From an uncultured Clostridia bacterium (GTDB taxonomy: Bacteria; Bacillota; Clostridia; Christensenellales; CAG-917): a DNA stretch of 64,000 nt. Positions within the stretch are counted from its first letter, which is position 1. Each line of letters begins with the position of its first letter. The notes beneath the pieces were generated by a model, which saw nothing but the letters and a program-made list of their open reading frames with translations, was not told the origin of the DNA and made no database searches. The position numbers and the translations under genes were made by a program. Shown here piece by piece: positions 19,160-23,797 of this stretch. Location: the NCBI GenBank assembly GCA_947625225.1, contig CANQNQ010000001.1, positions 225,900 through 289,899 of the forward strand, given 5' to 3'.

Positions 19160-19288
19160 AGAGGATTTCTGCGGGTAGAATCCCCTTTGTTGTCTGACAA
19201 GTTGGCGGTAGCACAAAGCCCTGTAAGGGCAATCAAAAAGAAAAGTGCTCTAAACGAAATCCGATGTGATGCGAATAAGATAATAAGG

Positions 19289-19325
19289 CGCCCGTTGTTT
19301 CACGCGAAACAGCGGGCGTTTTATG
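19289..19325 (+). terminator. 13-bp-stem hairpin plus T-run (terminator) that embeds a parS-like palindrome
   Basis: CGCCCGTTGTTTC-ACGC-GAAACAGCGGGCG then TTTTATGTT. The core TGTTTCACGCGAAACA (19296-19311) has 1 mismatch to the parS consensus TGTTNCACGTGAAACA. Confidence 0.6.
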
Positions 19326-19360
19326 TTATGAGGAAATGAGCTGACAGAAACTCGACCCTT

Positions 19361-19560
19361 GTTCATGAAGCTAACACCCCTGTGGCAGGTCACGCTCGGA
19401 ATAACCTTATCCCCGGATATGAGCCTGCGCCCCACAGATTTACTCCTGTTCGTGAAGCTACGCCCTCCGTGGTACACCATACTCAGAATGATCCTATCAC
19501 CGAATCTACTATTATTCATGAAGTAACGCCCGTGTGAACACGCCACTCGAGATTCCCAAC
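19361..19560 (+). repeat. Three imperfect tandem units (about 57-nt core; periods 87 and 66 nt)
   Basis: Cores begin TTCATGAAGCTAACACCCCTGTGG (19362), TTCGTGAAGCTACGCCCTCCGTGG (19449) and TTCATGAAGTAACGCCCGTGTGAA (19515). Each continues ..CTC(G/A)GAAT(A/G)A(C/T)CCTATC(C/A)CCG. Confidence 0.6.
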
Positions 19561-19899
19561 ATTAAATAAAATTTGCATTATGTTAATGGGCAGCCGTGCT
19601 GTCACCACGCGCAATCTCCATATAAACACGACGATGTCAATATTGCTTTGACATGGATTAACGTTTGAATCCACCCCCAACACCGCCGACGAGTCACACA
19701 ACCCGGCGCCCACAGAGATCTGCATTGTTTTATGTGGAACATTTCCGTTTTACATAAAATATACGCCAAAGTGACATTATTCCACAGCATAACCAACGCT
19801 GTTGCAATCAAATCCATCTGAAGACAGCATCTGAAATGGCAGCAATCACGTCCACGCTCGACGGATAACTGCAAGAAAGGGGAGCAGATGTTCCACAAA

Positions 19900-20370
19900 T
19901 CTCAATCCGGATAAAAGGAAGATCCATCACCCGTTCAACATTCTTTCTTTACCACTCAAGCCCGCGCAGCTTCACCGCTAGCCTCTTCTGCGCCATCACA
20001 CCCCCCTATCATCTTTCTTAACAATCATACTGGCGCCACTATTCCTGTATAGTCCGCAGTGGCGTTACTATTTCACCTCACCTGCCCATTGTCATCAGTC
20101 CCTTATCAATCACGCCAACGTCGCCTTTTCAATACCGTTTCTCATACATTGCTTCCCTTATTATCAACTTCTCAAACCATCATTATTTGACCAATCGTTC
20201 ATGCTCTAGATCCACGAGACGTCTCACTGAGCCGTTTCCCATTGTATCACCCCCCCCCCGCATCATCCTTGCCGTAAGCATATTTTTGAATAATCTCGCC
20301 TATTTTCCTATACTGTGCGCAAAGATAAGTAAAATATCCATATAACTGAAACGGCAATATACAACGCGCC
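19900..20370 (-). repeat. G-poor (plus strand) segment; probable inverted, degenerate copy of the purine-rich repeat at 21432 and 22156
   Basis: Its reverse complement is purine-rich. It shares collinear anchors with the right-hand units: GAAATAGTAA ... GTGGCGCC ... GGGGTGT(T)GA(GA)TG. Confidence 0.35.
20250..20259 (+). repeat. Homopolymeric C10 tract
   Basis: ATCACCCCCCCCCCGCATC. Confidence 0.9.
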
Positions 20371-20445
20371 TCAACTCATATAATAACATATAGCCGGCAG
20401 CTCAAAACAACTGCAAATATACAATAAAAAACAAAAAATTTTGAA

Positions 20446-20461
20446 TGTTCTACGTGAAACA
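20446..20461. promoter_or_regulatory. parS (ParB-binding centromere-like) site, 1 mismatch
   Basis: TGTTCTACGTGAAACA against the Firmicute consensus TGTTNCACGTGAAACA (position 6 is T instead of C). Confidence 0.7.
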
Positions 20462-20713
20462 TTCGACCACAAATGCCTACTATCAGGTGGAATTCTGGCA
20501 ATACACATTCCCGATCGGGAGTAACATGAAAGATGGTATGAGCGCGTAATGGCAATATGAATGTGTGCCGACTGGGTATGTGCCGCGGACGGGTAAAGCG
20601 GAAGATGTTTCACATAAACAACACGCCAAGCGCTGCTTTTGAGTGGTGAGAAACACAAACTTTTCAAAACGTGTTGCGAGGTGGATAAAATTGGCAAAAT
20701 AGCCATTTTTATA

Positions 20714-20729
20714 TGTTTCACGTGGAAAA
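20714..20729. promoter_or_regulatory. parS site, 1 mismatch
   Basis: TGTTTCACGTGGAAAA. The reverse complement TTTTCCACGTGAAACA differs from the consensus only at position 2. Confidence 0.7.
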
Positions 20730-21380: not shown

Positions 21381-21431
21381 GAGAGAGAATATTGGGCGAG
21401 CAGGAAAACAAGAGCGTAAATTTGCGCAGCA

Positions 21432-21840
21432 AAATGATAGGAAGGGTGGAGATCGCGGATAAGATGGGAGGAAGAGTCGTTTGTCGAGAACAGAGATGCC
21501 GGTATGGGGAAAGTAAACTCGGCTTATGGATAGAAAATATTTCAAGGGGGTGGCGAGGGACAAAACATACGGAGGTATAGATAGGAGAGACGGGTCGGGG
21601 AATGAAGTAAGATGATTTCAAGAGGGACGAGGGGATCAAAAGAGTCGGTGGTGTCGGATGGGGGAGAGCGGGGCCACTAAACAGTGGGGAGATTGTGATG
21701 ATTTTTGAGTAGATTTTGGAGACATAAGAGAGGTGAACTGAGAGAAGTGGGGCATTTCAAGAGGGGAAGAGATAATTAAAATAATCAGTGGCGTCGGGCA
21801 TGGAAAAGGGTTGAAAACCCTAGTAAACAGTGGGTATAGA
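21432..21840 (+). repeat. Purine-rich degenerate repeat, copy 1 (about 410 bp)
   Basis: Aligns by eye along its length with 22156-22575. It starts AAATGATAGGAAGGGTGGAGATCGCGG against AAATGATAGGAGGAGCGGAGATCGTTG. There are three internal TTTCAAG(R)GGG sub-repeats at 21539, 21616 and 21755. Confidence 0.7.
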
Positions 21841-22155
21841 GGGACGTTGATTCGAAATAAAGGGAGGTGGACACCAGGAGAGAACGCCTAAAATTCTACT
21901 TTATGCTGAGCGTGAAATGGGAATTAAGTGCAGGGATTTTGGGACTGACCGGCAGGGGGCTTGAATGTAAAAGATTATAGGCGTCGAACGGGGAAATGCA
22001 AGCGGAAATGCGAGTATAATTATGGGGCAAAAGGATATGAACCTCATATATCACGGATTAGATCGGTGAAGGCGGCAGGGTGACCGAAGAGACAGGTTAA
22101 AAACTGCGGAAAATAACAGATGAGAACAAACGCGCAGATGGAAATGTCGGCAGTG

Positions 22156-22575
22156 AAATGATAGGAGGAGCGGAGATCGTTGTTAAGTTTGGCGGAGGAG
22201 TGGTTCATTGAGAACAGCTATGTTGGAATGGGGAAAGGCGACTGGGAGGTATGGATAGAGAATTTTCAAGGGGTGACGAAGGGCAAAATAAGTGGAGGCA
22301 TGGATAGGAGAGGCGGAGGCTAGCTAGGAAATAGTAAGGGATTTCAATGGGTGACGAGGGGATAAAAAGAATCGGTGGCGCCGGATAGGGGAGAGTGCGC
22401 AAAAAGCTACTAAATAATGGGGTGTTGAGATGACTTTGAGGAGACTTTGGAGACAGGAGAGAGGAGAGCTGGGAGAGGCAAAAGGGAGATGATTTCAAGA
22501 GGGTGAGGGAATTAAAGGGATCAGGGTGCCAGGCAGGGCATAAGGATAGAAAATCTAACTAAATAGTGGGGCTTT
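22156..22575 (+). repeat. Purine-rich degenerate repeat, copy 2 (about 420 bp; offset about 724 bp from copy 1)
   Basis: Sub-repeats at 22264, 22342 and 22493 have the same internal spacing as copy 1. Shared blocks: ..GAGGGGAT(n)AAAAGA(n)TCGGTGG(T/C)G(n)CGGAT(n)GGGGAGAG...CTAAA(n)A(n)TGGGG. Confidence 0.7.
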
Positions 22576-22799
22576 GTGGGAAAGTGTAGTGAATACTGTG
22601 TTTGTGAGCTAAAATGTTGGCGAAAAGCGAGTGGAAAGGGCAGAATGAACGGGGCAGGCAAATTGAGAGAGAAAACAGCCGATAATACAGTTGAAAAGAC
22701 AGAAAAGTGCATGCGGACAATGATAGGCTGTGATTTTGGCTCGTAAAGCGGGATTTGAGCGGGAATTGGGCGAAATGTGAGTAAACTCACGAGAAGAGG

Positions 22800-23560
22800 C
22801 CTCAAAACGGCTTAAAACGACTCTGAGAGGCTCAAAAGCCGTGTTGTGTGTAAAATGCGGCCGAGATGTAGCGAATAGAGGGGGAATCGGCGTAAAACTA
22901 GCCGACGACCGGTGCAAAGCCGCAAAATAAACAAATGCAGACCAAAATGAAGGCAAACGGCTGTCAAAAGCCGAAAATCCTCTAAACAGCCGTGATTGGC
23001 TGTAAAGAGCACAAATGGCGGCGGAAGGGGCAGGGTTTGCTGTAAACGGTCGCAAAAGCGAGCAAATAGCTTAAAGATCGCCAAAAATGGCGTAAGCAGC
23101 CGGCAAATGGGCTGAAATGCCCCAAATAGTGGCGAAAAGCCGTAAAAAGCCTTCGAATAGGCAAAAAAGCCGCAAAACAGCCAAAAAGAGGGCAGACAGA
23201 GGCAAAATCGTCCAAAATGGTGAAAATCGCTGTGGACAGAGGGGAAAGCGGCTAAAAGTCGCGTTTTGGGCTTAAATGGCAAAGAAAAGCCGAAAATGTG
23301 CCGAAAAGCCACCAAACAGCGGGGTTTTTGGCCAATCGGCCGCATATTTTGAAAAAGTTGCTAAAATGCGGGTAAGCGGGTAATTTTATGCAAAATGCCG
23401 CGCTGCGGCAGGCAAAATGTGCATAAATCAAATTGATATATGGGGTACAAAATGACTTGTGGGGTGCGGATTTTTGAATTAAGGCAAGAAAACCGCGATT
23501 TTGCATAAATGGGTTGTGGAAAAGTGGGCAAAATTGATATATGGGATACGAAAAGTGCTT
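22800..23560 (+). repeat. Array of helically phased A-tracts (GCnAAAA type) on the plus strand
   Basis: For example 23101-23240, CGGCAAATGGGCTGAAATGCCCCAAATAGTGGCGAAAAGCCGTAAAAAGCC...GGCAAAATCGTCCAAAATGGTGAAAATCG. A-runs start every 9-12 bp. There is also a pair of AAATTGATATATGGG(G/A)TAC repeats near 23430 and 23531. Confidence 0.65.
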
Positions 23561-23717
23561 TTAAGCGGCCGCTTTTTGCATTATGCATAAAACGGGTAAA
23601 ATGAATAAAAGCAGGCGCCGTAAAGGTCGATCTTGGGGCAAAATGGAGCAGCGCAAGCGCAATATTATAGTTGATCAGATCGCCGAAAAATATTTTGAAA
23701 TTTATTCGCGCGCGCGC

Positions 23718-23746
23718 TTGCAATATGTTTACAAATATGCTAAGAT
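23718..23746 (+). promoter_or_regulatory. Candidate sigma-A promoter of gyrBA
   Basis: TTGCAA (23718-23723), a 17-nt spacer, then TAAGAT (23741-23746). AAGGAGG RBS before the ATG at 23798. Confidence 0.55.
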
Positions 23747-23797
23747 ATTTTTAATATTTATAATGCTTATAAATTTACTTTGTAAGAAGGAGGAAAC

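Follow-up and report, generated by a model that had tools for sequence, protein, structure and literature searches.

A gene-free parS region with helically phased A- and T-tract DNA upstream of gyrB in a Christensenellales-like Firmicute

Directly 5′ of gyrB, the 64-kb stretch of DNA analyzed here (hereafter the window) carries a 4.6-kb block (positions 19160 to 23797) that is devoid of real genes, holds a cluster of parS sites, and flanks these sites with helically phased A- and T-tract DNA. The window represents the origin region of a Firmicute, and the closest matches to its GyrB belong to Christensenellales or to uncultured Clostridia from gut metagenomes. The description of the block as a parS region with flanking phased tracts, conserved among relatives in place and in kind rather than in sequence, is well supported. 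We consider the chances about even that it is a noncoding centromere region of this Christensenellales-like organism, in which the phased arrays would act through DNA shape by organizing the ParB/SMC zone, by affecting topology beside gyrBA, or by both. A bacterial centromere is commonly pictured as a set of short parS palindromes dispersed among genes. Although parS clusters and bent DNA are each known, their combination in a conserved gene-free block is new, as is the regularity of the 10.0-bp array found in it.

A Noncoding Block That Holds All parS-like Sites of the Window

No open reading frame (ORF) in the block exceeds 177 amino acids, and the period-3 signal is 0.2 to 2.0, compared to a window median of 8.5. 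Pfam searches with the ten longest ORFs and with all six frames of the block returned no family match, and one match that scored below threshold (E 0.011; 16 bits, where 29 are required) was disregarded. In two other assemblies that contain this DNA, gene callers place just one ORF of 47 amino acids in the block. These results confirm what an earlier reading made from the sequence alone (the sequence-only reading) had described as 4.6 kb without real genes, and every module listed in that reading is present in the sequence. Among the gaps of the window that contain no RNA gene, the block is the longest by a factor of approximately 10.

When the whole 64 kb was searched for 16-bp palindromes matching TGTTTCACGTGAAACA with no more than three mismatches, all five parS-like sites recovered were located inside the block, between 19296 and 20762 (0.27 expected by chance). 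Half-sites of the form TGTTYCAC are also concentrated there, with 7 of the 11 in the window falling inside the block, within the interval 19296-20929. Two members of the central cluster (20714-20729 and 20747-20762) form a pair with a conserved 18-nt spacer. The best parS match of the window (19296-19311, TGTTTCACGCGAAACA, one mismatch) is the stem of the terminator hairpin of the upstream ABC-transporter operon. The sequence-only reading had noted a palindrome at 19289, which is present, while overlooking its parS-like identity.

Adjoining the parS pair is an inverted repeat of the form CCACT-N4-AGTRG, and additional copies are located at 21674, 21820, 22407, 22556, and 23309. All six matches in the window fall in the block, compared to 0.8 expected, and among 168 loci the motif occurs only in close relatives, again inside their blocks.

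The genes for the cognate partition proteins, parB and parA, are located at a distance of 4.5 kb to the left of the block. The replication origin most likely resides beside dnaN, approximately 11 kb to the left, because perfect DnaA boxes are present upstream of this gene at 8396 and 8445, and because the cumulative GC skew at the scale of the window reaches its minimum at 7 to 8 kb. Clustered parS sites, cognate parAB genes, and proximity to the origin are the features of a chromosomal ParABS centromere, and ParB is predicted to bind this DNA.

Helically Phased A- and T-tract Arrays

Phasing was assessed by Fourier analysis of AA/TT dinucleotides in 620-nt segments across the 64 kb. The segment at 22780-23400 exhibits a normalized power of 80 at exactly 10.0 bp, against a window median of 3.9 and a 99th percentile of 23. 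If this DNA is written with ten nucleotides per row, the A-runs fall in the same columns from approximately 22600 to 23420. The local phase of this A-array remains within ±0.75 bp over 22700-23350, and therefore no net frame-shifting indel is present in these 650 bp. Furthermore, bases match at a constant fraction of approximately 0.36 for all lags that are multiples of 10, up to 320 (0.21 off-phase), which means that neighboring units are no more alike than distant ones. The array repeats positional composition only, without homology among its units and without recent unit amplification. Tandem Repeats Finder (TRF) reports no real tandem repeat in the A-array, just fragments of two to three copies, and an identity as a minisatellite or iteron array was rejected on the basis of this result and of the absence of decay in the match at multiples of 10. 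The A-tract array named in the sequence-only reading is present, but it is wider than had been proposed (approximately 22600-23420, rather than 22800-23560), and its exact 10.0-bp phasing, which is the strangest property of the block, had escaped attention.

In a survey of approximately 2.5 Mb of loci from diverse bacteria, the A-array is the strongest periodic signal. The next strongest signals are an array beside parS in the related locus L083 (11.0 bp, power 31) and the T-array of the window (10.6 bp, power 29). To our knowledge, the exact 10.0-bp array of about 80 turns is among the most regular natural bent-DNA sequences in a bacterium. The T-array adjoins the parS cluster, and its power of 13 to 30 at 10.5 to 10.7 bp can be compared to a background median of approximately 4.

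The closest relative, L168, also carries a 10.0-bp array (4750-5350, power 40), placed with respect to gyrB as in the window. Only fragments of the two arrays can be aligned by BLAST, at approximately 63% identity and with gaps, and from an anchor common to both species (GGACAGAGGG) their A-tract phases agree within about 1 bp. Phased tracts are also present beside parS in L083 (11.0 bp), L001 (11.1 bp), and L169 (10.2 to 10.4 bp).

Phased A-tracts separated by G+C-rich spacers are the textbook arrangement for intrinsic DNA bending, and from the established physics of such tracts both arrays are predicted to be curved. In a wedge model, for which synthetic controls behaved as expected, the T-array holds the most curved 150-bp segments of the window (end-to-end to contour ratio of 0.43, compared to a median of 0.96), and these are nearly planar. 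Thus, the 10.6-bp array beside parS probably forms a nearly planar bend. The same model predicts that the A-array bends by approximately 14 degrees per turn with negative torsion, for a total of about 1100 degrees, and from these values we infer a left-handed superhelix of roughly three turns. Because the model helical repeat in this array is 10.5 bp, a sequence period of 10.0 bp should give a left-handed path, which would resemble that of nucleosomal DNA and be opposite to the positive wrap formed by gyrase.

Conservation of the Block Among Relatives

Related loci, labeled L001 and so on, were fetched by GyrB protein from genome and metagenome collections. At least 10 related Christensenellales-like lineages keep a gene-free block of 2.2 to 5.5 kb with a parS cluster 5′ of gyrB, and these include most lineages at 92 to 95% GyrB identity and one at 77%. 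Nucleotide similarity to the window is limited to a parS core of approximately 90 to 230 nt, a 15-nt palindrome, and the gyrB promoter. The palindrome (consensus AGTTTAC-WW-GTAAAC) is located 300 to 400 nt upstream of gyrB in most relatives and 2.45 kb upstream in the window.

In an alignment of the parS core from six species, the two parS sites, their 18-nt spacer, the inverted-repeat motif, TTTCAC half-sites, and T-runs are invariant. The inverted repeat (CYACT-N4-AGTGG in this alignment) has a 4-nt center that is flipped between species, and this points to half-site recognition by a protein rather than to an RNA hairpin. The entire parS core is inverted in L166 and L169. L175 carries additional gene-free gaps of approximately 1.1 kb (1879-3036, 4812-5890, and 14499-15687) around parAB and after gyrA, and so long noncoding spacers may be generally characteristic of origin regions across the clade.

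Within the limits of sequence evidence, the earlier proposal of a dedicated centromere or nucleoid-organizing region is supported. This is because parS sites are clustered here and nowhere else in the window, parAB and the probable origin are near, and relatives keep both the parS core and the absence of genes; in addition, the flanking arrays consist of helically phased A- and T-tracts, that is, of DNA predicted to be curved.

Strand Composition and the gyrB Promoter

GC skew across the block ranges from -0.48 to +0.62 and switches sign near 20400. The right flank (21400-22800) contains 36% G and 11% C on the plus strand, and all eight relatives examined likewise show a bias of G over C on the side facing gyrB. 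The sign of the skew matches that of replication skew, but its magnitude is far larger. A flip of strand composition around the parS cluster, as proposed in the sequence-only reading, therefore holds for GC skew. However, AT skew flips twice, such that the DNA is T-rich to the right of parS and becomes A-rich only from approximately 21300.

RNAs heading toward parS would have a C/G ratio of 2.6 when arriving from the left flank and 3.25 when arriving from the right flank. RNA that is rich in C and poor in G has the composition of Rho-utilization sites. We hypothesize that transcription entering the block from either side would be terminated by Rho, and that this would insulate the partition complex. 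G-quadruplex or H-DNA formation was considered as the main feature of the purine-rich repeats and was rejected, given that just two G-quadruplex-type motifs are present in the block. Purine-only tracts of at least 15 nt are absent from the block.

The gyrB promoter, as read from the sequence, resides approximately 50 nt 5′ of the ribosome-binding site (RBS) and has the same architecture in L168, where GGGGTA repeats similar to those at 23430-23600 are also present; a promoter scan gave a weaker overlapping match only.

A Possible Role for DNA Shape in Segregation and Topology

If the block is a centromere, ParB would load at the parS cluster and spread over the gene-free DNA. Intrinsic curvature pins the tips of plectonemes (PMC6301789), and curved DNA beside parS might set the centromere at such a tip or in a loop, a placement through which ParB bridging and SMC loading could join the two flanks. 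The 10.0-bp array, located 300 to 1100 bp 5′ of the gyrBA promoter, may serve as a shape-coded topological element, such as a writhe store or a platform for DNA wrapping, rather than as a series of sequence-specific sites. From what is known of gyrase promoters in other systems, the gyrBA promoter is expected to respond to supercoiling. A bend in the gyrA promoter of Streptococcus pneumoniae acts as a supercoiling sensor (PMC4096756). Furthermore, 10-bp periodic arrays have been proposed to be mechanical insulators in Caenorhabditis elegans (bioRxiv 10.64898/2026.08.08.743475).

A number of observations weigh against a centromere that depends on DNA shape. Among the relatives, L165, L174, and L085 have no such block 5′ of gyrB, and where a block exists, little sequence is conserved beyond the core of approximately 230 nt and the length varies 2.5-fold. 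The 10.0-bp array is seen just in the window and in L168, and at the threshold used no periodic tracts are detected beside the parS core in L175/176, L166/170, L172, or L002. L175 and L176 are the relatives most similar to the window in gyrBA nucleotides (82%), and they lack a strongly periodic array. The A-array is located 2 kb from the parS cluster and may be unrelated to the centromere. Nor is it phased with the promoter, since the window and L168 differ by approximately half a turn in the phase of the array relative to the gyrB -35 element, and on these grounds a promoter-phased role was rejected. The bias of C over G in the left flank is shared by only about half of the relatives, and the search for a rho gene covered this window only. 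Finally, the curvature values depend on the dinucleotide parameters chosen for the wedge model, which were checked against synthetic controls only.

A more ambitious version of the shape-based centromere, which we regard as doubtful, is that this clade has evolved a “regional” centromere, namely a gene-free and fast-evolving zone whose function would reside in the shape of its DNA. The arrays would fold or pin the ParB/SMC zone, the 10.0-bp array of 80 turns would form a protein-free left-handed solenoid that serves as a topological device beside the gyrBA promoter, and inward transcription would be self-terminating. If true, this arrangement would parallel the centromere paradox of eukaryotes, wherein a conserved function is maintained on rapidly changing repeats. 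Chromosome segregation sites could then need an architectural sequence context, consisting of a multi-kilobase gene-free zone with helically phased curvature, and the locus would be a natural test case for curvature that positions supercoils, ParB condensates, and SMC loading. In addition, an array located beside the gyrase operon could link DNA mechanics to supercoiling homeostasis.

Alternative Explanations for the Block

The main rival is neutral repeat turnover. According to this explanation, which we consider possible though on balance unlikely, only the parS core is functional, and the remainder is a neutral, fast-evolving spacer located in an origin-adjacent hot spot for rearrangement. 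This DNA would have been shaped by duplication, by slippage, and by mutation biased toward one strand, and the arrays would be by-products without a role. Origin-proximal gene order does differ between close relatives by inversions, and the inverted parS cores noted above fit this picture. The wide range of block lengths and the near absence of sequence conservation are also as expected for neutral DNA, as are lineage-specific duplications and the (CCAA)n microsatellite of approximately 30 units that resides inside the parS block of L083 (7620-7740). Moreover, L175/176, the nearest relatives by nucleotides, get by with a block of 2.55 kb that lacks a strong array.

Against neutrality, bacterial genomes tend to purge useless DNA, yet the gene-free block is present in at least 10 lineages whose genomes are otherwise compact. 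The 10.0-bp units show no homology to each other and their phase does not decay over 650 bp, unlike the units of a decaying minisatellite, and TRF finds no real tandem repeat. Furthermore, L168 retains both the 10.0-bp period and the position of the array despite a divergence of approximately 37% with gaps. If the arrays are nonetheless neutral, the locus would still illustrate clearly how rapidly repeats can turn over in an otherwise compact genome.

There is little probability that the block is, or contains part of, oriC, either as a second cluster of DnaA boxes or as an unwinding element. The skew switch near 20400 has the sign expected for an origin, an AT-rich stretch is present at 20380-20445, and some relatives carry DnaA boxes in their blocks. 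Specifically, the block of L002 has five boxes beside parS, and segment 6230-6800 of the L169 block contains five (three of them perfect) together with two TGTCGAA Spo0A-type boxes. This L169 segment also carries a copy of the palindrome (GTTTAC-NN-GTRAAC) and adjoins an A-tract array and the inverted parS core, and thus looks like an origin joined to a centromere. However, the block in the window has three imperfect DnaA boxes in 4.6 kb, which is background density, and the blocks of L166 and L170 have none. The perfect boxes and the skew minimum point instead to the region 5′ of dnaN, and the local skew (-0.48 to +0.6) is far above replication bias. Spo0A boxes are absent from the block in the window. 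Because DnaA-box clusters are present beside the parS cores of L169 and L002, the functions of origin and centromere may once have been united in an ancestral block and then split by the inversions seen between relatives.

Still less probable, in our estimation, is that the block specifies one or more long noncoding RNAs or a very long gyrB leader, with a purine-rich RNA running rightward from the center and another running leftward. A large noncoding RNA locus was among the proposals of the sequence-only reading. Purine loading of the plus strand to the right of 21400 and of the minus strand to the left of 20400 would fit the bias of transcribed strands, and promoter-like hexamers number 16, compared to 8.2 expected. 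Against this, Rfam searches of the whole window (gathering scores) and of the block (E<=1, both strands) give no match in the block, and this null result covers OLE, GOLLD, ROOL, raiA, 6S, and the rest of Rfam 15. Folding z-scores for the purine-rich repeats are within noise. Values of -3 to -5 are reached only in the A-array, where they occur on either strand and are caused by short GGC/GCC inverted repeats next to the A-runs. Almost none of the sequence is kept even at 95% GyrB identity, and no homologs align outside the parS core from which a covariance model could be drawn. The best promoter-like site (20960-20932, minus strand) is not conserved in L168, and no conserved promoter for a noncoding RNA was found in the block. 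The conserved gyrB promoter, being so near the RBS, also argues against a long leader. Intrinsic terminators in the block (7 versus 5.8 expected) are not significantly enriched.

It is very improbable that the block is an assembly artifact or a set of decayed pseudogenes, even though the source is a low-coverage metagenome in which contigs of other assemblies break in the left part of the block, and even though relatives encode HlyIII, LuxS, or a lipoprotein at the edges of their blocks. Two independent ENA assemblies are 99.99 to 100% identical to the window over 19864-23797 and 20769-23797, respectively, and hence over up to 3.9 kb of the block, and comparable blocks are present in many independent genomes. 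Given that two assemblies reproduce the sequence, misassembly is unlikely, and the possibility of a chimeric assembly raised at the outset gained no support. The C10 tract at 20250-20259 is covered by the assembly of the window and by L082 (which starts at 19864), and L081 starts to the right of it, at 20769; this tract could be prone to slippage or be a hot spot for sequencing errors.

Searches for gene remnants were also negative, whether made by tblastn with the HlyIII, LuxS, lipoprotein, and small ORFs of relatives, by an HlyIII profile, or by the six-frame Pfam scan. One tblastn match, between HlyIII of L172 and 23521-23664 (E 0.004), was rejected because other HlyIII proteins give no match and a four-sequence profile scores negative. 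A remnant of a mobile element or prophage was likewise rejected, since blastn against plasmid (72,556 records) and phage (50,697 records) sequences yields no match to the block, and no Pfam transposase or integrase domain is present.

Comparison with Known Systems

The proposed centromere is most readily compared with the Spo0J/parS system of Bacillus subtilis (ParABS; consensus TGTTNCACGTGAAACA). In both, several copies of the 16-bp palindrome are clustered in the vicinity of the origin, and parAB is adjacent. In model species, parS sites usually reside inside or between ordinary genes. In contrast, the sites examined herein are embedded in a multi-kilobase gene-free block with arrays of half-sites, the CCACT-N4-AGTGG motif, and phased A- and T-tract arrays. 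Plasmid centromeres such as R1 parC, pSK41 parC, and TP228 parH (PMC2241845, PMC3130281) also present tandem units of helical-turn length at a partition locus, and the bound DNA adopts a U-shape or a superhelix. However, those centromeres consist of a few sequence-specific iterons of 10 to 11 bp or 20 bp that are bound by the adjacent ParR or ParG protein, whereas the approximately 80 units of the A-array are alike in composition only, and no ribbon-helix-helix partner was identified for them.

With other bent DNAs (the kinetoplast bent fragment, “A-tract clusters,” and curved DNA upstream of promoters), the arrays share A3-6 runs, G+C-rich spacers, a spacing of one helical turn, and strong predicted curvature. 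The number of consecutive turns is approximately 80, compared to the three to five tracts usual at bacterial promoters (PMC9825172, a review), and the period is 10.0 bp rather than the approximately 11 bp typical of bacterial genomes (PMC4132750, PMC516772). The bend in the S. pneumoniae gyrA promoter (PMC4096756) is similar in being curved DNA 5′ of a gyrase gene in a Firmicute, but it is located within 126 nt of the start site, whereas the array reported here ends about 300 nt 5′ of the -35 element and extends to 1.1 kb.

The periodic An/Tn clusters (PATCs) of C. elegans (bioRxiv 10.64898/2026.08.08.743475) resemble the A-array in being extended 10-bp A/T arrays with intrinsic curvature for which an action by DNA mechanics, rather than by protein motifs, has been proposed. 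PATCs, however, are eukaryotic, act on nucleosomes, and derive from Helitron minisatellites, whereas the A-array has no detectable mobile origin and its host has no nucleosomes. The wrapping motif of strong gyrase sites (PMC6379681) likewise has a periodic alternation of AT and GC that favors wrapping of DNA on protein, and this motif spans approximately 130 bp, with arms of 10.75-bp period flanking a specific cleavage core. In a comparison of periods only, the A-array (10.0 bp) does not fit this motif and the T-array (10.6 bp) is close to it, and the predicted left-handed path of the A-array would in addition oppose the gyrase wrap.

Genomic Context and Additional Observations

Coordinates of the modules, neighboring genes, and related blocks are listed in Table 1. 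The sequence-only reading had placed the block where recF and gyrB are normally close neighbors. This does not apply here, since recF is 10 kb away and parB, parA, rsmG, the PNP gene, and the ABC transporter genes intervene.

Table 1. Features of the gene-free block, genes near it, and corresponding blocks in related loci
Feature	Coordinates	Strand	Remarks
dnaN	8606-9706	+	Pfam
Unknown ORF, 384 aa, between dnaN and dnaA	9788-10942	+	No Pfam family
dnaA	11170-12543	-	Pfam
recF	12645-13742	+	Pfam
parB	13844-14734	-	Pfam ParB_N/HTH_ParB
parA	14815-15579	-	Pfam AAA_31/ParA
rsmG	15790-16488	-	Pfam
Nucleoside phosphorylase (PNP) gene	16571-17332	+	Pfam
ABC transporter	17619-19159	+	Pfam
Terminator hairpin of ABC-transporter operon	19288-19323	+	-29.4 kcal/mol, then TTTTAT
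Three degenerate tandem units, ~66-87 nt each	19345-19565		66% column identity
Inverted pair of TGTTCCACA parS half-sites	19718-19912		Includes 3-mismatch parS-like site 19726-19741
G-poor, C-rich segment	19900-20370		C 33%, G 13%, C/G = 2.6; C10 at 20250-20259
parS cluster	20446-20762		Sites 20446-20461, 20714-20729, 20747-20762; half-site 20606
CCACT-N4-AGTRG inverted repeat adjoining parS pair	20778-20791	-	Motif scan
T-tract array	20800-21340		Phased ~10.6 bp; TTTCAC half-sites 20824, 20850, 20922
Palindrome AGTTTACAAATAAAC	21349-21363		Clade consensus AGTTTAC-WW-GTAAAC, clade-specific
Purine-rich repeat, copy 1	21418-21834	+	70% purine, GC skew ~+0.6
Purine-rich repeat, copy 2	22142-22570	+	72% identity with copy 1; start-to-start distance 724 nt
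A-tract array	22600-23420		Consensus ~GSSNAAAWNG, period 10.0 bp, ~80 turns
Two 23-nt direct repeats and four TTTGCATAAA-type motifs	23430-23600		Direct repeats 101 nt apart (23430, 23531)
Putative gyrB promoter, short leader, RBS	23718-23797	+	-35 TTGCAA 23718-23723, 17-nt spacer, -10 TAAGAT 23741-23746
gyrB	23798-25708	+	Pfam
gyrA	25719-28277	+	Pfam
Block in L168			4.8 kb; GyrB 95%, closest relative
Block in L172/173			5.5 kb
Block in L083			4.2 kb
Block in L169			3.9 kb
Block in L002			3.8 kb
Block in L001			2.6 kb
Block in L175/176			2.55 kb
Block in L166/170			2.2 kb
Block in L084			>=2.6 kb

The gene order of the origin region is scrambled (8606-16488 and 58198-62319). The dnaA gene is inverted between dnaN and recF, the parB-parA-rsmG genes are placed between recF and gyrB, and rpmH-rnpA-yidD-yidC-jag-mnmE reside on the plus strand 35 kb to the right of gyrB (58198-62319). 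The same origin segments are inverted differently in the close relatives L163 and L169. The 384-amino-acid ORF between dnaN and dnaA is not found at the corresponding position in L166 or L170.

Near the DnaA boxes at 8396 and 8445, a tract of 280 nt that is very T/C-rich and AT-rich (7015-7293) is located between a minus-strand tRNA-Asn and an ArsP_2-type permease gene, and may serve in unwinding or be otherwise associated with the origin. On the minus strand, Rfam identifies a SAM riboswitch at 6146-6237 (51 bits), 5′ of a small minus-strand ORF. To the right of gyrA, the intergenic sequence 32768-32854 is 80 to 83% identical to two intergenic places in L176 (3067-3129 and 5580-5668), and may be a small dispersed repeat of the clade. 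One ORF of 5089 amino acids occupies 33489-48758 on the plus strand, and its first 4000 residues have no Pfam match. The window also carries spo0A (50108-50944, minus strand), and the organism thus has the master regulator of sporulation.

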